NCBI GenBank assembly: GCA_947381905.1
Contig: CANCXL010000006.1
Span: 448 to 64,447, forward strand
DNA: 64,000 bases
Direction: 5' to 3'
Source of the DNA: an uncultured Clostridiaceae bacterium
GTDB taxonomy: Bacteria; Bacillota; Clostridia; TANB77; CAG-465
Below, one piece after another: positions 310 through 40,590 of this stretch. Position 1 is the first letter of the stretch; the number at the start of each line of letters is the position of its first letter. The notes below the pieces were generated by a model. The model was not told the origin of the DNA, did not search any database, and saw nothing but the letters and a program-made list of their open reading frames with translations. The translations under genes were made by a program, and so were the position numbers.

Positions 310-1809
310 ATGATGTATAATTTTGAATCAATATGGGATGATACTATACAAAAAACTCCCAAATATAATAAATTAAATAAAGATATTAATACATATGTAT
401 GTATAATTGGTGGAGGAATCACCGGAATAAGTACTGGATACATGCTACACAAAAACAACGTGGATTTTGTATTATTAGAAAAAAATAAAGTATGTAATAA
501 TACTACCAAGTTTTCTACCGCTAAAATTACAAGCCAACATGGACTTATTTATTCAGATATTGCCAAAAAATATGGCTTAAAATATGCTAAATTGTATCTT
601 GAAGCAAATAATGAAGCAATATCTAATATAAAAGAAATTGTGCAAAAAGAAAATATTGATTGTGACTTTACAGAACAAGATTCATATATATTCACTCAAA
701 AAATGCAATATAAAGAAAACATTAATAATGAAGCTCAAATTTTAGCCAAATTAGGTTTTAATGGCTTTGAAGTTTTAAATAGTACAGAATTACCAATTAA
801 TACCAGTTATGCCATTAAATTTAAAAATCAGGCAAAATTTAACCCTAAAAAATATACCTTATCTCTTGCTAATTTAATTAAAGATAAAATGTATGAAGAT
901 TCTAATGTAATTAATATAGAAAAAAATGGTAAATCATATATTGTTCATACTCCAAAATATAAAGTATATTGTAAGAAAATAGTAATTGCCACACATTTTC
1001 CAATTAAAGATATCCCTGGCTTTCACTTTATTAAAATGTATCAAGAGACATCTAATGTAGTAGCTATAGATATAAAAGATAATACATTTAATGGTATGTA
1101 TATAAATGCAGAAACTCCAACTATATCACTAAGATCAATGATATATAAAGATCATAATATACTACTTGTTGGTGGAAACGAATTTAAAACTGGAGATTTA
1201 ATTCAAGAGAATAAATATAGTTTTCTTGAGAAACTAGCTTATCAAATGTATCCTGATTGTAAAATAATAAAAAGATGGAATACTCAGGATTGTATGACTT
1301 TAGATAAAATTCCATACATTGGTAATTTTTCAAAATTTTATCCTAATGTATATGTGGCAACTGGGTTTAATAAATGGGGAATGACAACATCAAATGTCGC
1401 AGCAAATATTATAAAGGATAAAATACTAGAAAACAAAAACAAATATGAAAAAGTATTTAATGCAACAAGACTGCATCCAATAAGAAATAGTAAAGAATTA
1501 TATTACAATATGAACCAAACTATACAATCTGAAATTATAAATAAACTAAAAATTAAAAAAGACACTATAGATAATATTCCAATTAATACAGGTAAAATAA
1601 TAAAAGAAAATAATATAGCAATAGGCGTATACAAAGATGAAAAGGGCAATATATACAAAGTTCATCCGTATTGTAGTCATTTAAAATGCTTGCTCACATT
1701 TAACTCACAAGATAAAACATGGGATTGTCCTTGCCATGGATCTAGGTTTGATATATATGGTTATATTATAAATAATCCTGCTAATGAAGATATAAAAACA
1801 TATTTTTAA
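310..1809 (+). CDS. FAD-dependent oxidoreductase fused to a C-terminal Rieske [2Fe-2S] domain
   Basis: N-terminal dinucleotide fold IIGGGITGIS. C-terminal Rieske ligand pattern CSHLKC...CPCHGS. Confidence 0.85.
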   Translation: MMYNFESIWDDTIQKTPKYNKLNKDINTYVCIIGGGITGISTGYMLHKNNVDFVLLEKNKVCNNTTKFSTAKITSQHGLIYSDIAKKYGLKYAKLYLEANNEAISNIKEIVQKENIDCDFTEQDSYIFTQKMQYKENINNEAQILAKLGFNGFEVLNSTELPINTSYAIKFKNQAKFNPKKYTLSLANLIKDKMYEDSNVINIEKNGKSYIVHTPKYKVYCKKIVIATHFPIKDIPGFHFIKMYQETSNVVAIDIKDNTFNGMYINAETPTISLRSMIYKDHNILLVGGNEFKTGDLIQENKYSFLEKLAYQMYPDCKIIKRWNTQDCMTLDKIPYIGNFSKFYPNVYVATGFNKWGMTTSNVAANIIKDKILENKNKYEKVFNATRLHPIRNSKELYYNMNQTIQSEIINKLKIKKDTIDNIPINTGKIIKENNIAIGVYKDEKGNIYKVHPYCSHLKCLLTFNSQDKTWDCPCHGSRFDIYGYIINNPANEDIKTYF

Positions 1810-1831
1810 AACACTTTAATATTAAAAACAT

Positions 1832-1857
1832 AAAGAAGCTGGTTAAACAGCTTCTTT
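1832..1857. terminator. bidirectional rho-independent terminator between convergent genes
   Basis: Perfect 10-bp stem AAAGAAGCTG/CAGCTTCTTT with 6-nt loop, flanked by A/T runs. Confidence 0.7.
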
Positions 1858-1869
1858 ATTATTACTTTT

Positions 1870-3408
1870 TTAATATATTGTTTTTTCTATAAAGTCTAGT
1901 TCTTTTCTTAAACCATCAGTAATTTTACCTTTTTTCTTTATACTTGATATGACTTCTTTTACAGCATTTTCCGATCCATCAAGATCACTTAATTTCCAAA
2001 TATAATTTATTACCTTTTTACTTAAGTTATATGACTTGTAATATTCGTTTAATATATCATTTTTATATTTTTCTATTATTTTTTCATTATAGTCATTATA
2101 CAAATATGGTATATGATCACTAAATGTTTCCAAATTCACATTATTAATTAAGTCATATATTTTTTCTTTTTGATTTTCATATTTATATAAAAGAATTCTA
2201 TCCTTTAAAGAACCTTCTCTTTCTACTAATAGATAATATGTAATACATTCGTCAAGTGTGTACTTTTCTCTTAATATTTTATAATACTCTATAGATTTAT
2301 ATTTAAAGCATTCCTCTTTTATATAATTATAATATTTATCTTTGTCTACATATGAATATGATTCGATTAAAATTTTTCTATATTTCTCTTCATTTTCTAT
2401 CCTAAATTCTTTAATTATATCTACTATTATCTTATATTCTTTATATTTATATAAAGTCTCAATTACTTCATCAATATAGCTAAGATCTTTTCTAAATAAA
2501 ACTACTTTATTCACTAGATTTTGTATTGCATTTTTAGAATTTAGATATTTACTTTCTAAAATATATAATATTGTAATATAGAGTATATTATTATTTGAAA
2601 ATGAATTAATTTTATTATTTACCACGTCATATAATTGTTGCGCTTTCCTTTCATTATTAGTATTTTGTATTATAATTTCTAATACATCGTCTTGAATATC
2701 ACTCACATTTATAAATTTTAACCAATTTATAATATAGTCATATCCTTCATCATCTTTTGCTATTTCTTCTATAACACTATTTACTATACCATTACAGTCA
2801 TAAAACAAATCGTAAATTTCATCATAGTCTTCATCATAGTAATAATCCTCGTCTTCATCATAGTAATCTTCAACATATTTTATCCAGCGCTCTTTATATA
2901 TAAATTCATATAAATATCTTATAAAATTAAAAATATTTTCTTTATCTTCACTATAATGCTCTAATGCCATCTTACAAGACTCGTCTACAAAACAAATAAA
3001 CTCATCTATCATGTCATAGTCTATACAATCCCCATCATATAAACCATTCTTAATTATTTCCTCATTAAAATAATTTATATATTTATTATCACTAATTTTA
3101 TTATCAATATTTAAATTTTCTATTACATTACTTTTATCTTTTAAATAATATAATACAGCTGCAATATGCTTACAATTAGTATTTGATCTATAATAAGGAC
3201 AAGTACAACTCAAATTTTCAATTTTTTCCTCATCAGTTGAAATTCTAACTTTATATGTCATATTTCCATTTACTAAGGCTTCATATTTTTTACCATCACT
3301 AATAACTCTTTTTACTTTTCCATCAATGTAATAATCATATCCTCTTTTTAAAATTACCATATCAAAGTATTTTTTTAAATTTCCTATATCCATATTTCTT
3401 TCCCCCAT
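1870..3408 (-). CDS. SWIM zinc-finger domain protein with long helical, acidic Tyr/Asp/Glu-rich body
   Basis: CTCPYYRSNTNCKHIAAV fits the SWIM CxCxnCxH signature near the N-terminus. Start may be the second ATG at 3393 (GGGGGA SD). Third gene of a tightly spaced operon. Confidence 0.7.
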   Translation of the reverse strand: MGERNMDIGNLKKYFDMVILKRGYDYYIDGKVKRVISDGKKYEALVNGNMTYKVRISTDEEKIENLSCTCPYYRSNTNCKHIAAVLYYLKDKSNVIENLNIDNKISDNKYINYFNEEIIKNGLYDGDCIDYDMIDEFICFVDESCKMALEHYSEDKENIFNFIRYLYEFIYKERWIKYVEDYYDEDEDYYYDEDYDEIYDLFYDCNGIVNSVIEEIAKDDEGYDYIINWLKFINVSDIQDDVLEIIIQNTNNERKAQQLYDVVNNKINSFSNNNILYITILYILESKYLNSKNAIQNLVNKVVLFRKDLSYIDEVIETLYKYKEYKIIVDIIKEFRIENEEKYRKILIESYSYVDKDKYYNYIKEECFKYKSIEYYKILREKYTLDECITYYLLVEREGSLKDRILLYKYENQKEKIYDLINNVNLETFSDHIPYLYNDYNEKIIEKYKNDILNEYYKSYNLSKKVINYIWKLSDLDGSENAVKEVISSIKKKGKITDGLRKELDFIEKTIY

Positions 3409-3422
3409 AGAATAAATATTTT

Positions 3423-4442
3423 TTAAACCAATTTATATTTATTATATAACTTACTATTATATTTAATCAAATTATTTTTAGCAAGTCTTCCTACAATAAA
3501 GCTCATTGGTATTTTATATTCTTTAGACTTTTCACATAAATAATCTTCATCAATATTTTTAGATATGTTTATCCATTCATTTTGACTAATCATAGTATTA
3601 ATTGCAAATAAATCTGCTCTTTTTTCTCTTTCATCATCGCCATCTATAATCGTTTTACTTTTTGCCATATTATAATCACTTTTACAATGTCCTAATTCAT
3701 GAAATATTTCAAAGAAAAATGAATCTTTTCCAGAATAATTATCTGTTATATATATAGCTGGTGTATTTAATTTTACTTTGAAGCATCCTCTAACTTTTGT
3801 TCCAGGCAAAGCTTTTTCACATACAAATATTATCCCATATTTATTTAATATTTTGGTTATTCTTTCTATATCAATTCCTTCATTATATGATTCCTCAAGC
3901 AATTCATAAATCAGTTCATTAAATTTTGAGCTGTCATATTTTTCTATACTTTGACTATTACTAATTTCATCGCAATGAGCTATCCATAAAGCTAACTTAT
4001 AATAATTTTCTCCAGACTTTTTAAATAATACAAATTGTTTTATGTCATTTAATACCTTAAAGTTACGGACTTTTAAAAAATTTAATATATCCATAGCATT
4101 TTGATAAACATTTGTCACATCTTTAAACTCAATCCATTTCCTTTTAATAACATTTGTTATATTCATATCTTCATATAATATTTTTTTTAAATCCTTTTCA
4201 CAAGGATACTCTTTTCTAATATTTTCTTCAAGAATTCTTGCTGTCTCAATAGAAATAATAAAAGAAGTTGGTATACCAGTTAAAGTTGCAATGCTAACTG
4301 CCATACACGGAGTTATATTTTTTTTACCTTTTATTAATTCATTCATATGTTTTTGACTAATACCAAGTCTTATAGCAAATTCAGACTGAGATATATTATT
4401 ATCTATCAAATAATCTTTTAAATAATCTCCAAAACAAACCAT
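3423..4442 (-). CDS. XRE-family HTH fused to ImmA/IrrE (COG2856-type) zinc metallopeptidase, HigA-like antitoxin/regulator
   Basis: N-terminal HTH (NISQSEFAIRLGISQKHMNELIKGKK), HEXXH motif FHELGHC, AGGAGG SD lying inside the end of the upstream toxin gene. Confidence 0.8.
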   Translation of the reverse strand: MVCFGDYLKDYLIDNNISQSEFAIRLGISQKHMNELIKGKKNITPCMAVSIATLTGIPTSFIISIETARILEENIRKEYPCEKDLKKILYEDMNITNVIKRKWIEFKDVTNVYQNAMDILNFLKVRNFKVLNDIKQFVLFKKSGENYYKLALWIAHCDEISNSQSIEKYDSSKFNELIYELLEESYNEGIDIERITKILNKYGIIFVCEKALPGTKVRGCFKVKLNTPAIYITDNYSGKDSFFFEIFHELGHCKSDYNMAKSKTIIDGDDEREKRADLFAINTMISQNEWINISKNIDEDYLCEKSKEYKIPMSFIVGRLAKNNLIKYNSKLYNKYKLV

Positions 4443-4455
4443 TCTTCTTTACCTC

Positions 4456-4692
4456 CTATCCTTCACCATAATGCTTATCATCAATACATAAAAACCAAAC
4501 CTCTACTATATCTTTCAATATATATGGATATTTTCCAACTGGTTTAATATATAACCTTAATTTAGAATTTATTCTCGCAGTATATATGTCTTTTAGATTT
4601 CCTTTTTTCTTTTCTAACATATAATGCAAATGTATTGGATTTAACATTACATCTTTTAAGGTTTTAGATTGTTTCAAAAATACTTCCAGCAT
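4456..4692 (-). CDS. RelE/ParE-superfamily (HigB-like) toxin; true start probably upstream at about 4779-4782 on a non-ATG codon
   Basis: ARINSKLRLYI...VWFLCIDDKHYGE resembles the RelE/HigB core. It sits directly upstream of the HTH antitoxin (HigBA gene order). The frame stays open for 29 more codons up to a GAGGTG SD. Confidence 0.6.
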   Translation of the reverse strand: MLEVFLKQSKTLKDVMLNPIHLHYMLEKKKGNLKDIYTARINSKLRLYIKPVGKYPYILKDIVEVWFLCIDDKHYGEG

Positions 4693-4816
4693 TTCTATTT
4701 CCTTAATCTCCTTAAATAAATGCTTATCTAAAATCTTCTTTTTATAGTCTCTAGTGTATTGCTTATTCTTTAGTATAATTATTTAAATCACCTCGCAATA
4801 TCACTATGTTGATTAT

Positions 4817-4846
4817 ATTATAACCTATAAAGTAATAACATGTCAA
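4817..4846 (-). promoter_or_regulatory. sigma-A-type promoter of the toxin-ImmA-SWIM operon
   Basis: Minus-strand TTGACA (4841-4846), 18-nt spacer, TATAAT (4817-4822). Flanked by inverted 8-mers AATATCAC (4797-4804) and GTGATATT (4855-4862). Confidence 0.5.
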
Positions 4847-4888
4847 TAACACGGTGATATTTAGAGTATAAACTTATAATATAAAAAA

Positions 4889-4918
4889 TACAAGAAATTT
4901 TATTTCAAATTTCTTGTA
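4889..4918 (-). terminator. rho-independent terminator after HEPN-like gene 1
   Basis: Stem TACAAGAAATT/AATTTCTTGTA followed by a T-run on the minus strand. Confidence 0.7.
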
Positions 4919-4966
4919 TAATTTTGTACCAATATTCTTAATAAACTTTATGAAAATTGTAATAAG

Positions 4967-6352
4967 CTAAATAATAATATTATTAAAAAAAATCTTAGTA
5001 TGTAAATTATTTATGCTATTTTTTATATGTATTTCATCTAAGCCTAATCTATAAAGTTGCATTACATATATAAATCTACTTAAAAAAACAGCTCCTAAGA
5101 TTCCATCATTTTCTAAATCAATTTGCATATGTCCATGTGCATAGTCATTTCTTAGATCACTTAACTCCTTAAATATATTGTCCCTATTTCTTACATCATT
5201 AAGATTTATAAGATGTTCTAAAATTGGTTTAGCAAAAGTAATAAGCTCGTCATATGCGTATTTTAATTTTCCATCTAAAGTATCTTTGTACATATTTTCT
5301 ATTGTCTTATTAACTATCCTTTTTTGAAGAGAATTACATTCTAATTTCATATTATTAAGTTTGTTTTCTAAATCTCTAAGTTTACTTACTTTGCCAGGCT
5401 TATGCTTTATTCCTTCAGGAAATAATTGATCAAATTCCCACTCAAATGCAGATGTTAAATTTATTACTCTATCTAAAGTAATTTGTTTTGCTTCAATAAT
5501 ATCCTTAGGAATATGTCTTATAAATAATTTCTTGTCTGATATCGCTTGAATAATTTTTTCTTCAATTGGCAAAATATCGTCATGATTAATTATATGTTTA
5601 TAAATATAATCCTCTTCAACTCCATTATTGAGCTTATTCTCTCTTTTATATGTATAATAGAAAGTGCCACAATTATATAATCTGTTGTTTTCATCAAAAG
5701 AATATATAATTATTCTATCATCTAAAATGTTTTGGCGATATGAAATATAAGAATAAAAAATATGTAACTTATTATATATTTTTATTATATCTTTAAAATT
5801 TTCCATTTTGTCTTTTAAAGAATATTTTGCAAATGTATTAAGTGTCAATGGATTTTCATTATTTCTATTTAATTTTCTAGCCACATAATAATAGTACTCT
5901 ATTTCTTTATTATCTATTTTTATCTTTTTTATTTCACTTTTTACATCTCTGAAATTATTTACCTTAATAGATATCTGTTTATCATCATCTAAAGTAATTT
6001 CGTTAAGAGCTTTGTTTGTACTATAAAAAGCATTTAATTCTTTAAATGACATTTCAAATGAATTAATCTCATGTTCTCTGTTGTCTTTAAATTCAATATA
6101 ACCAATTATTTCAAATCTTTCTTTTCCATCTATATAGTCCATTGTATTATTATGAAAAATTATACCTTTATTCCAGTTCGGGAAAAAATTAACATGTAGC
6201 TCTTGTATTTCAGAAATAAACTCATTTTTACAATTAAACTTTTCAAAAATTTTACTTATATTAATTCCACTTGTATTTGAGATTTCAATAACGCCATCTT
6301 CTATTTTAAAAAAATACATCTTTTCATTTAACTTAAAAAAACCAGTTTTCAC
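4967..6352 (-). CDS. HEPN-like (Rx4H) protein with large N-terminal domain; ApeA/Abi-type architecture
   Basis: GTG start with GGTGAT SD. C-terminal helical region carries LRNDYAHGH, with the His 55 aa from the C-terminus. Own terminator. No other recognisable domain. Confidence 0.55.
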   Translation of the reverse strand: MKTGFFKLNEKMYFFKIEDGVIEISNTSGINISKIFEKFNCKNEFISEIQELHVNFFPNWNKGIIFHNNTMDYIDGKERFEIIGYIEFKDNREHEINSFEMSFKELNAFYSTNKALNEITLDDDKQISIKVNNFRDVKSEIKKIKIDNKEIEYYYYVARKLNRNNENPLTLNTFAKYSLKDKMENFKDIIKIYNKLHIFYSYISYRQNILDDRIIIYSFDENNRLYNCGTFYYTYKRENKLNNGVEEDYIYKHIINHDDILPIEEKIIQAISDKKLFIRHIPKDIIEAKQITLDRVINLTSAFEWEFDQLFPEGIKHKPGKVSKLRDLENKLNNMKLECNSLQKRIVNKTIENMYKDTLDGKLKYAYDELITFAKPILEHLINLNDVRNRDNIFKELSDLRNDYAHGHMQIDLENDGILGAVFLSRFIYVMQLYRLGLDEIHIKNSINNLHTKIFFNNIII

Positions 6353-6463
6353 TATATATCACCAATATATATATATCACTTTATTATTTTACTGTCAATA
6401 TTAGACTTATTTGCTTAAATAATACTAATTAGAAGTTCTAATATCTTAAAACTTCATTAAAAA

Positions 6464-6485
6464 AGTACTAGTAAAAACTAGTACT
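6464..6485 (-). terminator. rho-independent terminator after wze
   Basis: Stem AGTACTAGT/ACTAGTACT with 4-nt loop, T6 on the minus strand. Confidence 0.75.
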
Positions 6486-6492
6486 CTTAACC

Positions 6493-7239
6493 TTATGATA
6501 TTCTTCTAAATTTATCATCATATTTTATCATCTGATTACTTGTATAATGTGAATAATCTTTAGCATAGTATTTCATTTTATCCATAGGCATTTTATTTAT
6601 TACTACACCTAATATATTACCACCTACACTTAATATTTTTTCTTTTGTTTCAAGTAATGTTTCTCTTCTTGCTTTACCTATTCCACAAGTAAGTATTACT
6701 CCATCTACTTTATTACATAGTATTATACTATCAGTTACAATATTTGCTGGTGGTGCATCAACAATAATAACATCAAATTTATCTTTTAAATTCTCTAAAA
6801 TTGCTGCAAATTGTTCACTTTCTAAAAGCTCTGATGGATTATGTGGTGTTATTCCAGTTGGTACTACATATAAATTCTCTATACCTGTAGACTGAATTAG
6901 CTTGTCCATTTCTTCATCTAAATATACACTACCTTTACATATTTTTTTGTTATTTAACACACTAGAAAGTCCTACAGTATTATCTATATTAAATACTTCA
7001 TGTTGTCTTCCTTTTCTTAAATCTGCATCAATTAATAATACTCTTTGTTTAGATTGTGTAAATGCTATTGCAAGATTTGATGCTGTCCAGCTTTTTCCTT
7101 CTCCAGGAGCAGAACTTGTAATTAAAAACATCTTTGAACCAGTTTTATTCATTTTATATGTAAGATTTGTTCTTAAAGTTCTAACTGCTTCTGATACTGG
7201 AGATTTTGGAGCTTCATGAATAATTAAATCTTTTCTCAT
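6493..7239 (-). CDS. wze: capsular polysaccharide tyrosine autokinase (CpsD/CapB/Wze type)
   Basis: PKSPVSEAVRTLRTNL N-terminus, Walker A SAPGEGKS, Walker B VIIVDAPP. ATG at 7239 follows an AAGAGGTG SD. Confidence 0.9.
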   Translation of the reverse strand: MRKDLIIHEAPKSPVSEAVRTLRTNLTYKMNKTGSKMFLITSSAPGEGKSWTASNLAIAFTQSKQRVLLIDADLRKGRQHEVFNIDNTVGLSSVLNNKKICKGSVYLDEEMDKLIQSTGIENLYVVPTGITPHNPSELLESEQFAAILENLKDKFDVIIVDAPPANIVTDSIILCNKVDGVILTCGIGKARRETLLETKEKILSVGGNILGVVINKMPMDKMKYYAKDYSHYTSNQMIKYDDKFRRIS

Positions 7240-7251
7240 ATCAAACACCTC

Positions 7252-7950
7252 TTAATCTTTAATTTCTGGTATTACTGCAAGAGTTTCAAGTCCTAATAGT
7301 TCTTCTATTTCTGTTTTAGACTTAACTCTTGTATCAAAATAGAATATTAAAAATAATATGCCACAAGATACTACAAATCCAGCTGCACCAAATAGTCCAG
7401 CATTTTTAGTATAATTTACATTACTAGGAACTTTACTTGGTATTGCTTTATCTATCACAGTAACATTTTCAATGTTATATATTTCTCTTACTTTTTCTTT
7501 AAAAACATCAGATAAACTATTTGCAACATTTGCTGCAACAATAGGATCTTCATTTTGTACTTGAATTTTTAACATCTCTGTATCATCTTTTGCATTAACA
7601 GATATGTTAGACATTAAAGATTCTTCAGATATTTCAAGTCCTAAAGCTGTCTTTACTTCTTCTGCAACTGCTCTACTTTTCATTATTTCACTATATGTTG
7701 AAACAAGCTTTGAGTTTAATGTTATATCTCCTTGTGTAATTGCTTCACTAGACGTAACATATGAATTATTTGCAGTAGTTGGTTTAGATAACACAACTGT
7801 GGTTACTGCAGAATACATTGGCGTAATTAGAAATTTAGTATATAATACGCCTGCTACTACTCCTAATATAGTTAAAATAATTACAAAGAATTTCTTTTTA
7901 AAAATATAATATAGTATTTCTTTTATATCAATCTCTTCCATAATCATCAC
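7252..7950 (-). CDS. wzz: polysaccharide chain-length determinant / kinase modulator (Wzz/CpsC/CapA type)
   Basis: Two terminal TM segments around a soluble loop. Located directly upstream of the tyrosine kinase. Confidence 0.85.
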   Translation of the reverse strand: MMIMEEIDIKEILYYIFKKKFFVIILTILGVVAGVLYTKFLITPMYSAVTTVVLSKPTTANNSYVTSSEAITQGDITLNSKLVSTYSEIMKSRAVAEEVKTALGLEISEESLMSNISVNAKDDTEMLKIQVQNEDPIVAANVANSLSDVFKEKVREIYNIENVTVIDKAIPSKVPSNVNYTKNAGLFGAAGFVVSCGILFLIFYFDTRVKSKTEIEELLGLETLAVIPEIKD

Positions 7951-8040
7951 CGATAAAAAAATTATATAATATTTTTATAAGAAAAATCAAGGGGATAATA
8001 GTGATTTTTAGAGGTTATAAAAAATATTTCTAATATACTA

Positions 8041-9321
8041 TTATAATAAAATTTCTTTAGTATATAAAATATTTAACATACTTAGTCTTAAATTGCCACA
8101 ATCTAATTGTATTAATTTGTACATATTTAACAAAATACAATCTTCGATAAACATAATATATTTTTTTATTTTTAATTCATCTAATTTAATTCCTAGTTCG
8201 GATATGCTATGAATATAGTATGTTCTAGCATCTTTTATATTTTTTGATAACATTAATATTTCGTCATCAGAAAAGTTAAAATTTTCATTTACATTATTTA
8301 TTAATTCATATACCATAGATCTAAATTCAGGTTCATCACGTCTTCTTATATTCAATACATTGGTTCTTGCTAATGATTGATCATATAAAAAATTTCTGCA
8401 AAAATTTTCTATCATTGCAAAACAATTGATTAATCTTATTGTTGATGGAACAGTATACTTTGTTACATCATTATAAAGTTCCATTATTGGATACATTACT
8501 TCTGCTTTATCAAAAAAATTATTTATACACTCTCCAAAATTGTTTATATCTTGTAACTTAATTGAACAATCCTCCATTAATCTTTTATAGTTATTATTTA
8601 AATACTTATACTTATTTTCTTTAATACAATTAATTAAATAAATAGATTTCTCTTTATCTAAATACATCATTTTATCTTCAAATTCAATATTTTTTCTTTG
8701 TATTATCATTAATAGATTCATTAATGTACATGATTGTTTCTTTATTTCATAAAAATTTAATACTTTATCATTACATATTTCAAATACTATGTCACTATTT
8801 AATAAAACTTTATTATCTATTTCTAGAATACAGGGGTATGTAGCAACAGATAATTTCCCAAAATTCGTATTATAAGTATAAATTTTTGAAGAGTATTCAA
8901 TATTTTTATTTAGGAAATTATTTTTAAATATATTACATTCTACAAAACTATTAATATCCTTAAAAAAAATACTATAATTTTTAAAACAAACGTTTTCTAT
9001 TGCATCATATCTTTTACCGATAATAATCCAATCCAAATTATATGATGCATGATATATATTTTTTTTACTTTTCGATGTGTAAGTTGTTCCTGTTGAAGGA
9101 TGAGATAAAGTAATAATAGTTATTGGAATGCCAGATGATGTTTCTGTTCCAGAAAAAAACATTTCATTGTCATTAATGAATTTAAATATTTCATCATTCT
9201 CATAACTAAAATTTAAAGTGATAAAATTATCTTTTTTCTTTATATTTCCTATGATTTCATACTTATCAATATTAAACTTAATACTTAATCCTATCAAATC
9301 TTCTCTTGTTTTTATATCCAT
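8041..9321 (-). CDS. HEPN-like (Rx4H) protein 2 with large beta-rich N-terminal domain; ApeA/Abi-type architecture
   Basis: ATG at 9321 behind an AAGGTGA SD. DARTYYIHS motif, with the His again 55 aa from the C-terminus. N-terminal G..ITL and IIIG strand motifs. Confidence 0.55.
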   Translation of the reverse strand: MDIKTREDLIGLSIKFNIDKYEIIGNIKKKDNFITLNFSYENDEIFKFINDNEMFFSGTETSSGIPITIITLSHPSTGTTYTSKSKKNIYHASYNLDWIIIGKRYDAIENVCFKNYSIFFKDINSFVECNIFKNNFLNKNIEYSSKIYTYNTNFGKLSVATYPCILEIDNKVLLNSDIVFEICNDKVLNFYEIKKQSCTLMNLLMIIQRKNIEFEDKMMYLDKEKSIYLINCIKENKYKYLNNNYKRLMEDCSIKLQDINNFGECINNFFDKAEVMYPIMELYNDVTKYTVPSTIRLINCFAMIENFCRNFLYDQSLARTNVLNIRRRDEPEFRSMVYELINNVNENFNFSDDEILMLSKNIKDARTYYIHSISELGIKLDELKIKKYIMFIEDCILLNMYKLIQLDCGNLRLSMLNILYTKEILL

Positions 9322-9557
9322 TATATTCACCTTATAATATATTATCATATTTGTTTCTAATAATACATTTTTTTATAATTTTTTAAAAATATTTTAGGAA
9401 ATCTAATATTATATTTAAAAGATTGTAATAATTTAAAATAATTCTAAAAATACTCAAATATTGATATCAATAAATTAGTTTGTTATTTCAAATAAAACAA
9501 AAACAACTTGATTAAAATGTTAAAATAATTTATTTCAAACTTAGAATTTAAATATAT

Positions 9558-9590
9558 TAAAAAAAGAAGGATTTTAAAATAAATCCTTCT
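9558..9590 (-). terminator. rho-independent terminator ending the glycosyltransferase/wzx operon
   Basis: Stem AGAAGGATTT/AAATCCTTCT followed by T7 on the minus strand. Confidence 0.75.
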
Positions 9591-9647
9591 TCTAAAGATT
9601 CTATATTTTAGAATATTTTTCCAACTATTTGTTTATAACTTTATTAA

Positions 9648-11054
9648 TTAAATCTTATTTTTTTTACTAATTGCTAAAAAATCATATCTTACATAATTTA
9701 TATTAAGAGCAAAATATACAATTCCACCAATTATTATTTGTAAAATTATTTTTGCATAATTGTTATTTATAAAATAAGATAATACAAGTATTACTATAGA
9801 CATAATTATACTTTTTATAAAAAAAGGAAGTATAGCTTTTAAATTATCTATATACTTGATATCTATTCGAGTACAAATAATTTGATAAATCATTACCACT
9901 AATTCTGCTAATATAGTTCCAACGCAAGCACCATAAGCACCATATTTTGGAATAAATAGCAAATTAAATATAAAATTTACTATAGCACCACAAATAGTCG
10001 ATTTAACATATATATTGTCTTTTGATTTAGGAATGAGATAATTGTTTCTTGTTATATTTGTTATACATGAAAACAATACTGTAATAATTAGTAAATTAAT
10101 TAAATTGGGTGTTATGTCAAATCCATTTCCAAAAAATATATTGCAAAAATTTTTTGATACTAATAGTAGACCAGCACAAATGGGAAAAATCATAAAGAAA
10201 CACAATTTATATGTGTCCTTGATTTTTTCAGAGTACTCTTTTGTACTGACTTTTGACATATGTGGTAACATTACTGTTCCTAAAGCTGTAATAATACTTA
10301 ATGGAATATTAATTATTTTTTCCGCACTTTCATAATTTCCAAGTTGAATGGTATCTGAAAAATAACCTATCATTGTTTTATCCATAACTCTATATATGCT
10401 ATATGCAATTACAGGGATAAATAAAATAATACAAGGTTTATAGTTTAAATATATATCTTTAAATGATACTTTAACTAAAGTAACATCTTTTTTTATGAAT
10501 ATCCATAAATATAATTGACTAATCAATGTTGATAACGATAAAACTAATATATATATCCACAAGTCAGTTTCTTTTTTTACAAGTATGAAGATAAATATTA
10601 AAGATAATAATTTTATTATCATACTTCTAGAAATAGTGATTTTAAATTTTTCCATACCAAAATAAAACCAATTAATGTCAAGCATTGCAGAAATAAGAAA
10701 TATTGTTTGAATAATTAAAATTTGTTTATATTCAACATTAGAGAAAATTACAAACAATAAAAATATTAATATACATACAATAGAATTAATTAATTGTAAA
10801 TAATATATTGATAAGAATTTTTTAGATCTTTCCTCTCTAGTAGTAGACTTGGCAATTTCTCTAGCACCGTAATTATTTATTCCAAGTAAAATTGCAAGCA
10901 TAAAATAATTTACGATTGAATAAGTATACGAATATATACCTATATTTTCAACACCTAAAACTCTAGAAATATATGGTGTTGTTATAAGTGGTATTACAAA
11001 AGCAAAGATCTGATATATAAGATTATATATAAAATTTTTATTTGTTGTTTTCAT
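9648..11054 (-). CDS. wzx: Wzx-type oligosaccharide flippase (MOP/PST family)
   Basis: About 12 predicted TM segments, typical N-terminus NLIYQIFAFVIPLITTPYISRVLG. ATG at 11054 follows GAGGAG. Confidence 0.85.
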   Translation of the reverse strand: MKTTNKNFIYNLIYQIFAFVIPLITTPYISRVLGVENIGIYSYTYSIVNYFMLAILLGINNYGAREIAKSTTREERSKKFLSIYYLQLINSIVCILIFLLFVIFSNVEYKQILIIQTIFLISAMLDINWFYFGMEKFKITISRSMIIKLLSLIFIFILVKKETDLWIYILVLSLSTLISQLYLWIFIKKDVTLVKVSFKDIYLNYKPCIILFIPVIAYSIYRVMDKTMIGYFSDTIQLGNYESAEKIINIPLSIITALGTVMLPHMSKVSTKEYSEKIKDTYKLCFFMIFPICAGLLLVSKNFCNIFFGNGFDITPNLINLLIITVLFSCITNITRNNYLIPKSKDNIYVKSTICGAIVNFIFNLLFIPKYGAYGACVGTILAELVVMIYQIICTRIDIKYIDNLKAILPFFIKSIIMSIVILVLSYFINNNYAKIILQIIIGGIVYFALNINYVRYDFLAISKKNKI

Positions 11055-12180
11055 TTTTCTCCTCATCAAATAGAGCTATATCTAAGAAATTATTTGCTTT
11101 ATCTTTTAATTCATCTAAAGTTTTGTCATATGAGCTATAATCAACATCAGCTAGGTAATCAAATTTTTCGTCAAAATCGAATGGAATTAATCTATCCATC
11201 ATATTTAATTGTTTTAGTAATGTTATTACTCTATCGTCATCTCCATACATATCCCCATTTTTTACTGTTATAAAATTCTTTTTATAAATTGTAGAAAAGA
11301 TTGTTCCATGAAAAGATGTAGTAATAACTACTTTGGCATTTTTAATTAATGAAAGGTATAATGCTGGTGTCTCATAGTCAACTAGTTCAAATCCATATTT
11401 TTTTACTTGTTTAAAGTAATAAGATTTTGTACTCCATGCAATTACTTTTAAATTATATTTTTCAGATATCTTCTTTACAAACTTACATATATCAGTATTA
11501 AATGATGGGCAATAGAAAAATATATAATCCCCTTTATATTTATCAGAATCTTCTAAAATTGCATCATAGTCTTGCGCATTTAACAATAATGTTGGATCTA
11601 TTAATACTTCCGCATCTCTATTGCATAAATCTCTTATCCACTTTTTACCATTATTTTCTCTTATAGATATATAATCATATGAATTAATATATTCCTTATA
11701 TTTTTCTGGTTCCTTTGAATATTTTAAGATATTTTTAGAACCAAAACTAGGAGCATATGCTACTTTTTTTGCTTTTTTTACCCATGGTAAAAAATATGCA
11801 TCGTCGCTATCTTCTATTGTTATATTCCATATCTGATCACTTCCAGATACAACAATATCAAACTCTTCATCACTTAATTGATTATTTGATATATAAGAAT
11901 CAGATGTTAAATTAAAGTTTTTCCTTTTAAATTCTTCATATTTCTTATTATTTACTTTTAATTTTGATATTGCTGGAATAACTAATATATTTTTTACTAT
12001 ATTTTTTAATGAATTGTTTTTATAAAAAATACTATATAATTTTCTTTGATTGTAATTAGAAAAGTCTATTATTTTAGTTAAACAGCCTCTCTTCTCTATA
12101 GCTTTTTGCATAGCATATGATTCTAACATTGAACCACAATTATATGAATTATGAAATGTAATAATTCCTACTTTTTTCAT
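11038..12180 (-). CDS. polysaccharide pyruvyl transferase family protein
   Basis: N-terminus MKKVGIITFHNSYNCGSMLESYA and SGSDQIWN motif are typical of the CsaB/WcaK-type family. Confidence 0.75.
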   Translation of the reverse strand: MKKVGIITFHNSYNCGSMLESYAMQKAIEKRGCLTKIIDFSNYNQRKLYSIFYKNNSLKNIVKNILVIPAISKLKVNNKKYEEFKRKNFNLTSDSYISNNQLSDEEFDIVVSGSDQIWNITIEDSDDAYFLPWVKKAKKVAYAPSFGSKNILKYSKEPEKYKEYINSYDYISIRENNGKKWIRDLCNRDAEVLIDPTLLLNAQDYDAILEDSDKYKGDYIFFYCPSFNTDICKFVKKISEKYNLKVIAWSTKSYYFKQVKKYGFELVDYETPALYLSLIKNAKVVITTSFHGTIFSTIYKKNFITVKNGDMYGDDDRVITLLKQLNMMDRLIPFDFDEKFDYLADVDYSSYDKTLDELKDKANNFLDIALFDEEKNENNK

Positions 12181-12188: not shown

Positions 12189-13157
12189 CTATATTTCTTT
12201 TAAATATTCCTTTCTTTTTAATTTTATAAGTTTATTTTTTAATCTTAAAATTTTATAAGCTAAAAAATATCTTCTGTTCTTTATAAAATAAATTACTAAA
12301 TTTTTAAAAAATCCTAGGTTGTTATCCGCAGATCTTAAAAAGAATTTGTTGTAAAATTCAAAGTCTATTCTCTTATAGAATTTCTTAACATCTGTATAAC
12401 AATCTACAAAAGATAATCTATCAAACATAGTATAAATTCCATTAATACAGCTATTTTGTATTATTAATTTATCGTTATTTTGATTAATATCTAGTATATC
12501 CATTAAGTATTTTTGAAACTTTCTATCAGTGTCAATTATTTTTTCATTAAAACTTTTTGTAGCTGAACCAAAATTAACTCTATATATATATATATTATTA
12601 TTTACAATCTTATAATTTTTGGTTTTTTTAAGTATAGATAAATTGAAAATCATATCTTCACCATTAATTAAATCTGAAATAAATACTATATTGTTTTCTT
12701 TCAAAAAATCTTTTCTATATAATTTTGAAAAAGGTCCAGCTATACAAATTCCATCTTTGTTCATACCAGCAACTTGTCTCATTAATATTTCTTTGTTGCT
12801 ATTAATGCCTTCATTAGAAAATATAACTATATCGTATTTATAATTAAAGTATTCCTTTACAGTATCATACCAATTACGATTTAAAATATCATCTGCGTCA
12901 ACAAACATAAGGTATTCTCCTTCTGCTTGTCCAATTCCAAAATTTCTAGAATATGAAACGCCATGATTTTTATTATTATATATTTTTAACTTATCATTTT
13001 TTAGTTCATCTAATATATTTTGGGTGTTATCTGTAGAGCCATCATTAATTATTATAACTTCATAATCTTTAGTATTATTAATTAATATGGATGATATACA
13101 TTCTCTAATATATTTCTCCCCATTATATACTGGAATTATAATTGATAATTTTGTCAT
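12189..13157 (-). CDS. family 2 glycosyltransferase
   Basis: LSIIIPVYNGEKYI, INDGSTD and FVDADD motifs. Confidence 0.9.
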   Translation of the reverse strand: MTKLSIIIPVYNGEKYIRECISSILINNTKDYEVIIINDGSTDNTQNILDELKNDKLKIYNNKNHGVSYSRNFGIGQAEGEYLMFVDADDILNRNWYDTVKEYFNYKYDIVIFSNEGINSNKEILMRQVAGMNKDGICIAGPFSKLYRKDFLKENNIVFISDLINGEDMIFNLSILKKTKNYKIVNNNIYIYRVNFGSATKSFNEKIIDTDRKFQKYLMDILDINQNNDKLIIQNSCINGIYTMFDRLSFVDCYTDVKKFYKRIDFEFYNKFFLRSADNNLGFFKNLVIYFIKNRRYFLAYKILRLKNKLIKLKRKEYLKEI

Positions 13158-14316
13158 TTTTTATCTCCTTATTCTCACTTATGAAATCATTAGAATATAT
13201 TGTAAAAAGAAAAACTAACATAATTATAGGATTAAGATACACCTCTGTTAAATTTAAAATTAATAATACAAAAAAACATGAACTAATAGTTTTTATAATA
13301 TCATTATTATAATTATTCTTTACTTTATTACATGTACTTAAAATAATATATACATATACTAATATGCTAATAATTCCTCCCATATATAAATACTCTAATA
13401 TTTGATTATGTGCTGTTATAACTGTTTGACTATTATACATAGTATGTCTAACATCAATATTTTCCCATCCATATCCAATAAAAGGCTTTTTTAGAATTTG
13501 TTCTAAAGTTATATCCCATAAAAACGTTCTATTAGTGAATGTTAAATCTTTATGCAATATATCAACAATTATAAATCCAAATGCATTTTGAAATCTAAAA
13601 ATAACAATTATAAAAAACAAGATAATGGATACCCAAAAATAATTTCTTAAATTAAATAATTTAGTATTATTTTTTATAAATGGTAAATAATTAAGTATTA
13701 CAATAACACTCATACCAACTATTGATGTAGATGAACCGGAAATAATGCAACTTAAAAATATAATAATGTTAAGTAATTTTATACGTATCTTACTCTTATT
13801 TAAGCTATTATATATATGTCCTACTATATATGCAGGAAGAAAGTAACTAATCATAACATTTTTAAATCCTAAAATCCAGTTCTGACTAGCAATCCCCGTA
13901 TAAATAGTTCCTGTAGAATATAATCCTTTAGGAAATAAAATCATACTAAAAAAGTTGGCATAAATTAGTAATTCAAAGCAGATTAATAATGTATTTAAAA
14001 ATTTTATATTTTTTTTATTTAAATCGATTAAATATGCTAAACATAAAAGACTAATAAAATAATTCAATGCTGTTCCGATATTTCCATTATATAAAAACGT
14101 CGGTACAATAATTGTTAATGAAAACAAAATCAACTTAAGAAATGTCTTAGAAATTTTTCTTTCTTTAAATATAATAATTACTATAAAACTATATGAAAGT
14201 ATTCTTAATAAATTAAAAATCATTGAAACACTTACAAATCTAGTAAAATAATCTGTCCTAAAAAAGGAAAGTAAAATAATAAAATAAATAAAACTAAAAT
14301 TTTTAATTTTAAGCAT
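13123..14316 (-). CDS. wzy: Wzy-type O-antigen/capsule polymerase (O-antigen ligase-like membrane protein)
   Basis: Polytopic membrane protein with a large loop (GYGWENIDVRHTMYNSQTVITAHNQILE), located in a Wzx/GT locus. Confidence 0.7.
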   Translation of the reverse strand: MLKIKNFSFIYFIILLSFFRTDYFTRFVSVSMIFNLLRILSYSFIVIIIFKERKISKTFLKLILFSLTIIVPTFLYNGNIGTALNYFISLLCLAYLIDLNKKNIKFLNTLLICFELLIYANFFSMILFPKGLYSTGTIYTGIASQNWILGFKNVMISYFLPAYIVGHIYNSLNKSKIRIKLLNIIIFLSCIISGSSTSIVGMSVIVILNYLPFIKNNTKLFNLRNYFWVSIILFFIIVIFRFQNAFGFIIVDILHKDLTFTNRTFLWDITLEQILKKPFIGYGWENIDVRHTMYNSQTVITAHNQILEYLYMGGIISILVYVYIILSTCNKVKNNYNNDIIKTISSCFFVLLILNLTEVYLNPIIMLVFLFTIYSNDFISENKEIKNDKIINYNSSI

Positions 14317-15292
14317 ACTTTTTCCTCATTTCATTTAATTTATATAATAACATAATAAAAAGAGCATTATGATTTATAAATCCTCTTATTAACATTTTAT
14401 ATTTAAGATCCATATTATTAATTGGAGAATTATAAAAAATATTTTTCCACAATTCTGATGAAAAAGTTTGCTTAATAGCTTTATAATGTGAAATTCCATT
14501 TAATTTTTTATGCATTGCATAGTGCCTCAAATAATTCATATACATATATAAACCACACATATATATATCCTTATTATTAAATTCATATAATGAATATACT
14601 TTTTCTATCTCATTTATAAAAGTTATTATTTCTTCTTCATAATTATCAAAAAATTTAAATGATGCTGAATTTTCATTCAAGATATAGTTATAACATTTTA
14701 TATCAGAAATTATTATTTTATTGCATTTACTGTATATAGATAAATTAAAAAGAGTGTCTTCTTTAAAACGAATCTTAGTATTAAACTTTGCCCCATCAAG
14801 TAAAGTCTTTCTATACAACTTACCACAAACGTATCCTAATAATTGAGCATCATATATATCACTTTTACACGAAATTAATGCAGAAATCATATCTTTAATT
14901 TGATTTCTATTAACTTCAATTAAAATATTATCTGCTTCATTTTCAAATCTACCAATTACAACATCACAATTATACTTATGTGCGGACAACACTAATTCTT
15001 TAACAGAATCTGTTTCTAATGTGTCATCTACATCAACAAACATTATATATTCTCCAATTGAATGTTCAATTCCAAAATTTCTAGAATATGAAACACCATG
15101 ATTTTCATTATTATATATTTTTAACTTATCATTTTTTAATTCATCTAATATATTTTTTGTATTATCTGTAGAACCATCATTAACAATAATAACTTCATAA
15201 TTTTCAAACGATTGCGTAAAAATTGAATCTAGACATCTTTTTATATATTTTTCTCCATTGTATACTGGTATTATTATTGACAAGGTAACCAT
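14309..15292 (-). CDS. family 2 glycosyltransferase
   Basis: LSIIIPVYNGEKYI, VNDGSTD and FVDVDD motifs. Shares a near-identical 116-nt patch with 12189-13157. Confidence 0.9.
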   Translation of the reverse strand: MVTLSIIIPVYNGEKYIKRCLDSIFTQSFENYEVIIVNDGSTDNTKNILDELKNDKLKIYNNENHGVSYSRNFGIEHSIGEYIMFVDVDDTLETDSVKELVLSAHKYNCDVVIGRFENEADNILIEVNRNQIKDMISALISCKSDIYDAQLLGYVCGKLYRKTLLDGAKFNTKIRFKEDTLFNLSIYSKCNKIIISDIKCYNYILNENSASFKFFDNYEEEIITFINEIEKVYSLYEFNNKDIYMCGLYMYMNYLRHYAMHKKLNGISHYKAIKQTFSSELWKNIFYNSPINNMDLKYKMLIRGFINHNALFIMLLYKLNEMRKKYA

Positions 15293-15304
15293 TTTATCAC
15301 TCCT

Positions 15305-16525
15305 TTATTGAATTAATTCAATAAAATTATTATAATATACTTCTATACTTAAATCTTTTGAAACTTTTATACCACTCTGACTCATTTTATTTCTTTTATC
15401 ATCGTTTATCAATAAATCATCTATTGCTAAAGCAATATTATTAATTAATTTTTCATTTCTTTCAAGAATTATTGCTGAACCTTCAGTAGCATATTCTGGT
15501 ATACCTCCAGAATTAGTTGTTATTATTGGTAATCCACTAACTAATGACTCTATAATAGTTAATGGTGCTGGATCATCCCAAATTGAAGGTATTATAGCAA
15601 TGTCTGCTAAATTATAAATTTTATTAATTTCATCATACTTAACGAAACCAGTAAATATAACTTTATCTGCTACTGTTCCTAAGCTATTCTCTATTAAAGA
15701 TTCATATTCTGTTTTAGTATCAAGATCATTTAATGCTGATCCAATAATTAACAGTTTAAAATTCTTATATTTAACTTTTTTTATAGCTTCTACTAATTCA
15801 TATACGCCTTTTTCTGGAACAAAGCGTCCAGTAAATAATAATATTTTATCATTGTTAGAAATTTTATATTTAGAAAAGAATTCTTCTTTATAATTCATAG
15901 AATAATTCTTACCAAATCTTTCTCTATCAATTCCATTTCTTAATACAGAAAATTTATCTATTGGCATATTAATATTTCTCGAAACGGTCTCCTTTATATA
16001 ATTACTTACACAAATAACATTTTTTGTATCAAGAATTATATTATGGCATCCATATTCTGCTGGGAACTCATTATGACAATGATAATAATATCTTCCTTTA
16101 TACTTTTCAAAATTTTTATTCCATTTTAAGCATAAATATTGCGTTGGATGATTTTCTAGTAATATCTTCTTATAATTATTCTTTTTTAAATCATTACTGA
16201 TCTTCCACAAAAAAGACAATCTTTGAAAAATATATCTGTAGCTCTGTGAATTTTTCTTTTTTAATATATTTTTAGCAATAAAGTGTGTTATTCTATCTAA
16301 TACTTTAACAAAAAAAGAAGTTTTTATAAAAATAAAATCAGTATTTTTATATTTTTTACTTTCATCTAAAGCAACATTATCAAATATACTATAAATTAAA
16401 AATTTTTCTTTTTTCTGTTTTTCATTTTCATTTAGCATATTTACAATAAGATTTTCTACAGCTCCACCTTTAGTTGCTGGTACAGGTAAAAAACCCGATG
16501 TAATAATTGCAACTCTATTATCCAT
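15305..16525 (-). CDS. GT-B fold (family 4) glycosyltransferase
   Basis: C-terminal EX7E-like region PSIWDDPAPLTIIESLVSGLPIITTNSGGIPE. Confidence 0.85.
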   Translation of the reverse strand: MDNRVAIITSGFLPVPATKGGAVENLIVNMLNENEKQKKEKFLIYSIFDNVALDESKKYKNTDFIFIKTSFFVKVLDRITHFIAKNILKKKNSQSYRYIFQRLSFLWKISNDLKKNNYKKILLENHPTQYLCLKWNKNFEKYKGRYYYHCHNEFPAEYGCHNIILDTKNVICVSNYIKETVSRNINMPIDKFSVLRNGIDRERFGKNYSMNYKEEFFSKYKISNNDKILLFTGRFVPEKGVYELVEAIKKVKYKNFKLLIIGSALNDLDTKTEYESLIENSLGTVADKVIFTGFVKYDEINKIYNLADIAIIPSIWDDPAPLTIIESLVSGLPIITTNSGGIPEYATEGSAIILERNEKLINNIALAIDDLLINDDKRNKMSQSGIKVSKDLSIEVYYNNFIELIQ

Positions 16526-19871: not shown

Positions 19872-20076
19872 CTCCTTTACTCTACACTATAATTATACAC
19901 CATAACACATATTAATTGTGTGTTAGATTAGTGAATTTTTCATTCATAATCTAATAATGTTAAATTAACTTTTTAACTATATTAAATTATGCTTATTACT
20001 ATTATATTTTTATTATTTATATACAATTACATTTAAATTTATGATATAATTCTTATATTACAACACGGAGGTGTAT

Positions 20077-22147: not shown

Positions 22148-22654
22148 TTAATTAATTATTTTCTTTATAATAAAATTTTTAATTTTTGTTGTAATAATAA
22201 ATAGTATAATACCTGTAATTACTCCACATGTGTCTATCAATACATCAGTGACTTGTCCACTTCTATAAGGTACAAATAATTGATGTATTTCATCACTTGT
22301 TGCATACAATGCACCTATTATTGTCGTATAAATTACTTTTCTTTTTCTAGTTAATTTATATTTGTTTATCATATTGTATATTAATATTCCGCCTAATGTG
22401 TATATAGAAAAGTGTGCAAGTTTTCTTACAAAAGGTTGTAACGCTTCAACTATCATTTCTAAATTTTCATTTGATATATTTTTATCGAAAAAGATTATTA
22501 TTTTTCTAATCGTATTCCCACTTTGTGCTTTTGATGTATCTCCAACCTGGGAGGAAAACCAAAACACAATGGACATCCATAATATAACTATAGCAATATC
22601 TATTATTTTTATTATTATTTCTTTATTGTTATATTTCTTTTTATTATCTTCCAT
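22148..22654 (-). CDS. VanZ-family membrane protein (paralog 2)
   Basis: RKLAHFSIY...DEIHQLFVPYRSGQVTDVLIDTCGV is the same signature as 18399-18980. Confidence 0.8.
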   Translation of the reverse strand: MEDNKKKYNNKEIIIKIIDIAIVILWMSIVFWFSSQVGDTSKAQSGNTIRKIIIFFDKNISNENLEMIVEALQPFVRKLAHFSIYTLGGILIYNMINKYKLTRKRKVIYTTIIGALYATSDEIHQLFVPYRSGQVTDVLIDTCGVITGIILFIITTKIKNFIIKKIIN

Positions 22655-37020: not shown

Positions 37021-37021
37021 A

Positions 37022-38660: not shown

Positions 38661-38672
38661 GTGAAAACTCAC

Positions 38673-40577: not shown

Positions 40578-40590
40578 TTTAATACCTCCT

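Follow-up and report, generated by a model that had tools for sequence, protein, structure and literature searches.

Two short, divergent ApeA-like genes either side of wzz-wze in the capsule locus of an uncultured Clostridiaceae bacterium

The DNA described here, referred to throughout as the window, is a stretch of 64,000 nucleotides from an uncultured Clostridiaceae bacterium (contig CANCXL010000006.1 of assembly GCA_947381905.1). It has a G+C content of ~26% and contains a locus for capsular polysaccharide synthesis (cps). Two genes at the 3' end of that locus are the subject of this work. We call their products P1 and P2; the genes are 1.7 kb apart and flank the wzz-wze pair. Every gene of the cps region, like those for P1 and P2, is on the minus strand. 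In the direction of transcription, the region starts with genes for a RelA_SpoT-like protein, VanZ and the initiating transferase (Bac_transf). These are followed by GT1, GT1, GT2, Wzy, GT2, a pyruvyl transferase and Wzx (9648-11069). P2, Wzz, Wze and P1 come at the end. Behind them is a cassette of three genes, for a 78-amino acid (aa) product, a protein with HTH and M78 peptidase domains, and a SWIM protein. A convergent DAO/Rieske gene lies beyond.

A sequence-only reading of this region had proposed that P1 and P2 are HEPN ribonucleases (RNases) with an R-x4-H motif, bracketing a displaced wzz-wze pair. Translation confirmed the two open reading frames (ORFs), their positions next to wzz and wze, and their motifs (LRNDYAHGH in P1 and ARTYYIHS in P2). 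The conserved histidine is 55 residues from the C-terminus in both P1 (461-406) and P2 (426-371).

Family membership of P1 and P2

A bare R-x4-H motif is frequent among ORFs in the window. Thus, 11 of the 54 ORFs of at least 150 aa contain one, and in 5 of the 54 it falls 30-90 residues from the C-terminus. The motif alone is therefore no evidence for a HEPN domain; it is conservation and homology that count.

We collected relatives of P1 by exhaustive profile search. This yielded 603 representative clusters at E ≤1e-3 and 119 at E ≤1e-30. An alignment was made of 105 members, which share 16-64% identity with P1, and an alignment of six sequences was the query in a scan of genomes for further relatives. 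R401 and H406 were the sole invariant columns among the 105 sequences. Residues N402, A405, G407 and E304 (the last in AFEWEF) were kept in at least 90% of them, giving the signature R-N-x-x-A-H-G. When the relatives were scanned singly against Pfam, 59 of the 105 matched HEPN_Apea (E ≤0.01, best 6.8e-8), always within the C-terminal region. Fewer matches were obtained with HEPN_RiboL-PSP (7), HEPN_MAE_28990 (4) and ApeA_NTD1 (2).

The P2 family is small. Three clusters were recovered by protein search, and a scan of metagenome contigs added three more. A second protein search with the P2 alignment returned no further relatives, and none was found in a scan of viral contigs. The sequence KDxRTYY[IV]H is invariant in all six sequences of the family. 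P2 is 26% identical to one relative, P0007, over 97% of its length (E 1.8e-33) and is also homologous to a second, P0008. The gathering thresholds of the relevant Pfam models are 24.4 bits for HEPN_Apea (PF18739) and 25.5 bits for ApeA_NTD1. P0007 and P0008 scored 37.6 and 30.9 bits with HEPN_Apea, and P0008 scored 32.5 bits with ApeA_NTD1. Furthermore, the PADLOC candidate model PDC-S58 matched P2 (4.6e-6), P0007 (4.6e-14) and P0008 (5.3e-7). The proposed ApeA-type HEPN assignment was thus upheld, as was conservation of the R/H motif in both families.

An AlphaFold2 model of P1, built from the 105-sequence alignment, had a predicted local distance difference test score (pLDDT) of 92 and a predicted template modelling score (pTM) of 0.90. 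A beta-rich domain occupies residues 1-233 (pLDDT mostly >90) and residues 247-451 are all helical. R401 and H406 are placed at the end of a helix formed by residues 391-405. This layout agrees with the published order of ApeA-NTD1 and HEPN domains (PMC3710099). A beta-rich N-terminal region had been claimed for both proteins. The claim holds for P1, and P0008 has ApeA_NTD1; the model of P2 itself is of low confidence.

Similarity between P1 and P2 was not significant by BLASTP (E=0.35) or by hhalign (E=0.5, 0.01 and 0.08). A greedy profile alignment was colinear over the full length of the two proteins, with the Rx4H motifs in register. P1 and P2 are related at the level of the Pfam family only and hence are not the result of a recent duplication, in agreement with the sequence-only reading.

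Strain variation and gene neighbourhoods

To compare strains we used ten contigs of the same species, obtained by exact-match look-up of the Wzz protein. L022, one of these, shows 100% identity with the window across 17.9 kb. The arrangement of the window occurs in five contigs and three others carry an extra 898 bp. The remaining two (L023 and L027) have a different cps cassette. This second cassette encodes GT4 proteins, a radical-SAM/SPASM protein, Stealth, a different Wzx and Fer4/FrhB, and is unrelated to the cassette of the window. In these two contigs homology to the window begins only at ~8010-8069, just upstream of the conserved wzz promoter. P2 is present in all eight contigs with the first cassette and absent from both with the second. 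None of the ten contigs lacks P1 or the three-gene cassette.

The 898-bp insert replaces positions 6412-6493 of the window, including the wze terminator. Counting all ten contigs, an insert of ~0.9 kb between wze and P1 is found in five (for example L001 12829-13726 and L023 11456-12352). It encodes, on the opposite strand, a PycTM-like membrane protein of 177 or 192 aa (PADLOC PycTM 4e-6; 2TM effector 6e-4) and a 40-aa ORF. There is no cyclase gene near the PycTM-like gene.

A sister lineage (L003-L007) has the order IS-transposase end, wzz, wze, P1 homologue, DAO, and the three-gene cassette is absent. Its contigs all break off inside a transposase-like ORF, of which only the C-terminal end (...YNNFPMKLLKWLSPREKLNEYMQRG; L003 1-166) is left, ~300 bp upstream of wzz. 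At these contig ends, an insertion sequence (IS) element is at the position that P2 has in the window.

These comparisons alter the picture of wzz-wze. The pair, with its own promoter, forms the 3' end of the cps locus in the ten strain contigs, whichever cassette is present, and in the sister lineage. An identical Wzz protein is encoded by strains with two different cps cassettes. The pair is therefore a fixed, conserved 3' anchor and not, as had been suggested, displaced.

P1 has diverged far more than its neighbours. Between the sister lineage and the window, amino acid identity is 94% for Wzz, 95% for Wze and 91% for DAO, and only 63% for P1. For the window and L003, nonsynonymous divergence (dN) of P1 is 0.235 and synonymous divergence (dS) is 1.09; the corresponding values for the flanks are 0.02-0.04 and 0.17-0.31. 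The dN/dS ratio of ~0.22 signals purifying selection. Given this ratio, and a dS far above that of the flanks, P1 is a functional gene and the allele is much older than the DNA around it. The pattern indicates a putative allelic replacement of P1 between conserved flanks. We rejected the reading of P1 and P2 as pseudogenes or decaying remnants, given frames without disruption in all strains, a dN/dS of ~0.22 and invariant catalytic residues.

P2 is thus part of the exchangeable, serotype-specific segment and P1 belongs to an accessory hotspot just outside it. The G+C content fits this picture. Conserved cps genes are at 28-30% (Bac_transf 29.5%, VanZ 27.7%, wzz-wze 27.7%). P2 (20.6%), P1 (22.8%) and the serotype-specific cps genes are lower, and the neighbours of wzz-wze are at 20-23%. 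The comparison of related cps loci, which the sequence-only reading had pointed to, therefore ties P2 to one cassette and finds P1 always present, with a divergent allele in the sister lineage.

Relatives of P1 in other genomes have a different setting. In L034, the gene is fused into an operon of restriction-modification type, where genes for a Fic-methyltransferase and a DEAD/ResIII helicase precede it. It is beside an Mrr nuclease in L036 and directly after a type IIG-like methyltransferase in L038. In L016 and L012 it belongs to a defence island that also encodes an OLD-like ABC/TOPRIM protein, an SLFN-type helicase, GNAT and HTH-Fic. The homologues in L009 and L013 adjoin tyrosine integrases. 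In L031-33, the gene follows sugar-nucleotide genes and precedes a DUF3800 gene. The relatives of P2 are placed similarly: in L017, genes for VirD4, a serine recombinase, Fic, a Dam-like methylase and an HATPase protein share a conjugative-element island with it, and the gene in L018 is beside Fic and DUF6414. The P2 homologue of L008 closes another polysaccharide cluster and is followed by a SocA/Panacea gene. This neighbourhood profile is that of a defence gene and not of a capsule gene. The association with defence genes and variable loci had been anticipated, and is borne out by the restriction-modification operons, defence islands and integrase-flanked elements as well as by the strain-variable locus of the window.

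Two of these neighbourhoods contain further items. The L013 homologue of P1 (9983-11360) is a pseudogene in three metagenome-assembled genomes of uncultured Clostridia, its frame broken into two ORFs by a frameshift or stop; it is next to prophage-like replication genes as well as the integrase. Directly upstream of the P2 homologue in L017 is a gene (8468-9679) for a 403-aa protein with no Pfam match and YRSLIVHGN, an Rx4H motif, near its C-terminus. This may be another unclassified HEPN protein.

Taken together, the data make it probable that P1 and P2 are very divergent, short-form members of ApeA, with a beta-rich ApeA_NTD1-type domain and an HEPN_Apea domain carrying Rx4H, and that they serve as single-protein anti-phage RNases in a strain-variable hotspot. 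Their family, by transitive homology, is established, and so are the conservation of the catalytic residues, the domain layout, purifying selection and presence or absence among strains.

Several results weigh against this assignment. Direct searches of Pfam, NCBIfam and PHROGs gave nothing for P1, and nothing relevant for P2, even at E values up to 1-10. Direct HEPN matches, expected from the sequence-only reading, were thus confined to the homologues. P1 and four of its relatives had no match in PADLOC. Among the ten nearest outgroup relatives of P1, the HEPN_Apea score was at most 17-20.5 bits, below the threshold of 24.4, and five had no match. Hence, P1 is in a peripheral subfamily of HEPN_Apea. 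A Foldseek search with the full-length P1 model against PDB and BFVD did not return the predicted HEPN fold or anything else at E <1e-3. The best matches were beta-clamps and nucleoporins, with template modelling (TM) scores <0.15. Sequence-profile searches of PDB with the P1 and P2 families gave chance matches only. The fold assignment of P1 therefore rests on sequence profiles and not on structural comparison. The P2 model, from a four-sequence alignment, was poor (pLDDT 56), and it is at this low confidence that its order of strands and helices is the same as in P1. Finally, to transfer a mechanism from the ~600-aa E. coli ApeA proteins, with their helical N-terminal parts, to the short beta-rich P1 and P2 would be an extrapolation.

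Layout of the locus

The features of the locus are listed in Table 1.

Table 1. Coordinates of P1, P2 and associated features in the window.
Feature	Coordinates	Strand	Basis
P2, 426 aa, short ApeA-like	8041..9321	-	ATG start, ribosome-binding site AGGTGA; longest frame to 9348
P2 HEPN motif RTYYIH, R366..H371	8209..8226	-	Translation; within ARTYYIHS
P1, 461 aa, short ApeA-like	4967..6352	-	GTG start, ribosome-binding site GGTGA
P1 N-terminal beta-rich domain, residues 1-233, presumed sensor	5654..6352	-	AlphaFold2 secondary structure
P1 C-terminal all-helical domain, residues 247-451, presumed HEPN	5000..5614	-	AlphaFold2 helices; HEPN_Apea matches of relatives
P1 HEPN motif RNDYAH, R401..H406	5135..5152	-	Translation; within LRNDYAHGH
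wzz, chain-length determinant	7252..7950	-	Pfam Wzz 1.2e-17
wze, CpsD-type P-loop tyrosine-kinase-like	6493..7248	-	Pfam AAA_31 4e-13, plus CbiA and ParA
wzz-wze promoter-like site TTGATT-18-TATAAT	7961..7990	-	Consensus scan; kept in window, L023 (second cassette) and L003 (sister lineage)
Terminator closing cps biosynthetic operon after wzx	9562..9593	-	13-bp stem and T-run; -14 kcal/mol, z -3.2
Terminator after wze	6462..6486	-	-13.6 kcal/mol, z -3.2; inside the 82 bp swapped for the PycTM-like gene in other strains
P1 promoter-like site TTGACA-17-TATATA	6370..6398	-	Read from sequence; just inside block kept in all strains (homology resumes at 6411)
Terminator after P1	4889..4918	-	-14.4 kcal/mol, z -7.6; 0 of 200 shuffles fold equally well
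Accessory cassette: 78-aa ORF 4456-4692, HTH+M78 3423-4442, SWIM 1870-3408	1795..4966	-	Pfam HTH_3, Peptidase_M78, SWIM

Each of P1 and P2 had been described as its own transcription unit, delimited by three terminators. All three sites are present as a hairpin with a U-run. P1 has its own promoter-like site and its own terminator. P2 has promoter-like sites, according to the consensus scan; no terminator was found between P2 and wzz (folding z -0.4) and thus P2 is not shown to be a unit separate from wzz-wze. From these signals, the likely transcription units are the cps operon; P2, perhaps with read-through into wzz-wze; wzz-wze itself; P1; and the three-gene cassette.

The three-gene cassette has a perfect promoter, TTGACA-18-TATAAT, at 4846..4817 and a bidirectional terminator at 1830-1859. 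In PADLOC, the HTH/M78 protein matched PD-Lambda-2_B (4e-22) and also RmrA, and the SWIM protein matched PDC-S62 (2.8e-12) and also DpdE. The 78-aa protein had no match in scans of Pfam or PADLOC. We rejected a complete PD-Lambda-2 system since component B alone was matched, the 78-aa ORF had no match and the SWIM protein resembles PDC-S62/DpdE instead. The cassette is probably another defence or toxin-antitoxin-like system.

Other features were noted in the wider window. A LytR_cpsA_psr (LCP-family) gene at 27359-28312 is detached from the cps operon, ~8 kb upstream of it; hence, the locus departs from the streptococcal cpsABCD layout. On the 5' side of the cps locus are a DUF3800 gene (20071-20730, plus strand), an AAA_14/DUF4143 ATPase gene (20760-22034) and a second VanZ gene (22148-22654), and this flank may be accessory too. 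The two cps GT2 genes share ~315 bp at 79% identity (12889-13199 and 15024-15339), a paralogous repeat that could mediate rearrangement. Two tRNA genes are found at 31977-32063 and 32927-33012. The origin region (36130-48897) contains mnmG, mnmE, yidC, dnaA and dnaN, and the gene strand switches near 44-46 kb. As dnaA and dnaN are at 46-49 kb, the cps locus is roughly 30-40 kb from the replication origin.

Interpretation and comparison with known systems

HEPN domains are common as the toxins of toxin-antitoxin systems (PMC3710099). P1 and P2 might therefore be selfish addiction modules, without an anti-phage role, whose effect is to stabilise either the cps cassette or accessory DNA nearby. 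A distant, minimal ApeA homologue that may have resisted transformation into E. coli, presumably through toxicity, would fit this. The tie between P2 and one cps cassette fits such a function, and the SocA/Panacea gene adjoining the L008 homologue of P2 encodes an antitoxin domain. We regard the idea as improbable. No small partner gene is beside P1 or P2 in the window, where the intergenic regions are promoters and terminators only, and neither has a cognate antitoxin-like gene there. The 78-aa ORF downstream of P1 is the next unit, with its own perfect promoter. Moreover, the characterised ApeA proteins defend stand-alone.

A two-gene system is another possibility, in which P1-family proteins would act jointly with a divergent ApeA-like paralogue, either as a hetero-oligomer or with complementary triggers. 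P1 and P2 would then be such a pair, split by wzz-wze. A tandem of divergent ApeA-like genes with overlapping ends occurs in L016 (5066-6349 and 6304-7725) and L012 (2411-3694 and 3649-5070). The 427-aa protein encoded directly upstream of the P1 homologue matches ApeA_NTD1 above threshold (4.4e-8), and its LRNYYSH motif is 58 residues from the C-terminus. The window also has two divergent ApeA-like genes close together. The tandem in L016 and L012 may point to divergent ApeA paralogues that act in pairs. As a reading of P1-family proteins, and of P1 with P2, such a system is quite improbable: the L016 partner is outside both the P1 and P2 families, the strains with the second cassette have P1 without P2, and the P1 homologues in L009, L013, L031, L034, L036 and L038 lack a partner of this type. 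Furthermore, clusters of like defence genes are frequent even where the genes do not interact.

That P1 and P2 are housekeeping or regulatory RNases of capsule production, for instance in processing of the cps transcript, is very unlikely. P1 adjoins wze in each of the ten strain contigs and again in the sister lineage, and P2 is followed by wzz with no terminator between them. The ends of polysaccharide clusters also host members of the two families in three of ~11 independent contexts (the window, L008 and L031-33). This placement is suggestive, with too few cases to support a claim. Conversely, strains with the second cassette have wzz-wze and no P2, and most relatives of both families are without polysaccharide neighbours, being found in restriction-modification operons, defence islands and mobile elements instead. 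Nor is the divergence of P1, set against that of Wzz and Wze between lineages, the pattern of a co-adapted partner.

The sequence-only reading had also offered a mobile cassette of wzz-wze and the flanking HEPN genes, inserted after wzx; the G+C content of wzz-wze relative to its neighbours and the transposase end upstream of wzz in the sister lineage would suit it, but this is extremely unlikely and already contradicted, since wzz-wze and its promoter keep the same position in all strains, whichever of the two unrelated cps cassettes is present, as well as in the sister lineage, its G+C content is in line with that of other conserved cps genes, P1 homologues elsewhere are never linked to wzz-wze, P2 varies independently of it, and the block has no flanking repeats or integrase.

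None of these four alternatives fits the strain and neighbourhood data as well as defence by ApeA-type proteins does. The ApeA family (described in 2013), its Pfam models and its defence function are already known, and P1 and P2 are new, very divergent members. What goes beyond the routine is that both are missed by standard tools, that P2 co-segregates with one capsule cassette, and that P1 exists as deeply diverged alleles within a four-part accessory hotspot. Neither protein is visible to direct searches of Pfam, NCBIfam or PHROGs; in PADLOC, P2 matches an untested candidate only and P1 nothing. Since the P1 subfamily alone comprises ~600 clusters at 50% identity, current counts of defence genes in low-GC gut Firmicutes are probably too low. 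In this natural case, defence hotspot and capsule locus are joined; one gene travels with the capsule type and the other occurs as diverged alleles between near-identical flanks. Such a pattern is as expected from frequency-dependent selection by phages. It is conceivable, though on balance unlikely, that short ApeA-like RNase genes are recurrent cargo of surface-polysaccharide loci, so that a capsule switch, which changes the phage receptor, would also swap an abortive-infection gene. Should the pattern seen at this locus prove general, receptor variation and intracellular immunity would be linked in one recombining unit.

Several known systems resemble P1 and P2 to differing degrees. The Abi-type HEPN proteins of lactic acid bacteria (AbiD/AbiF, with Abi_C or Abi_2) are single-gene abortive infection systems of low-GC Gram-positive bacteria with C-terminal HEPN motifs. 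Unlike these, no member of the P1 or P2 family matched Abi_C or Abi_2 in the Pfam scans. HepT/MntA, other minimal HEPN toxins and RiboL-PSP HEPN proteins share an Rx4-6H catalytic helix in a four-helix core, and HepT is reported to be nearest in structure to the HEPN domain of ApeA. P1 and P2 differ from HepT/MntA and RiboL-PSP proteins in having a large fused N-terminal domain and no nucleotidyltransferase antitoxin partner, and the matches are both weaker and fewer than those to HEPN_Apea.

PDC-S58 is a single-gene candidate whose model is matched by P2, P0007 and P0008 over most of its length. Conversely, P1 and its relatives have no match, and PDC-S58 is a computational candidate only. In the literature consulted it is mentioned once, among the predicted systems tabulated for Streptococcus thermophilus (PMC11514479).

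ApeA itself (BMEI1217) was named by Anantharaman et al. 2013 (PMC3710099), who described ApeA-NTD1 as ~300 aa of mostly beta strands. Recent preprints present ApeA as an experimentally validated single-gene, stand-alone defence (bioRxiv 10.64898/2026.01.26.701840, 10.64898/2026.03.20.713152); cryo-EM structures of ApeA are described in one of them. According to the same two preprints, ApeA proteins are HEPN RNases active against DNA and RNA phages. They dimerise via the HEPN domain, most form rings, and they are activated once a ligand occupies a conserved pocket where the N-terminal domain meets the HEPN domain. Ec2ApeA responds to a 5'-phosphorylated deoxydinucleotide that arises as phage nucleases degrade host DNA. 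Activated ApeA cut tRNA anticodon loops and Ec1ApeA also cut the genomic RNA of RNA phages. Among shorter forms, one preprint includes a 467-aa "minimal" ApeA homologue with inconsistent labels, under which its outcome was either protection from DNA phages or failed transformation, presumably through toxicity.

By analogy with these proteins, we infer RNase activity, a trigger and an anti-phage role for P1 and P2. Each would dimerise through its HEPN domain to form a composite RNase site. The site would be silent until an infection-derived ligand bound in the pocket that separates the two domains; the beta-rich NTD1 is the presumed sensor. Once activated, the enzyme might cut tRNA anticodon loops or phage RNA, and phage replication would stop.

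P1 and P2 are unlike known ApeA proteins in some respects. Both are themselves under every ApeA-type threshold of Pfam, NCBIfam and PADLOC. They are 426-461 aa in length, whereas the E. coli proteins are ~600 aa with mainly helical N-terminal and middle domains. The P2 motif starts with RT where RN is usual, and both genes are located in a capsule locus. As in ApeA (PF18739 with ApeA_NTD1, PF18862), P1 and P2 are single proteins with a C-terminal HEPN domain containing Rx4H and an N-terminal region of ~230-300 aa that is mostly beta. Homologues of P2 pass the Pfam thresholds, more than half of the aligned P1 relatives match HEPN_Apea, and relatives are found in restriction-modification operons and defence islands.

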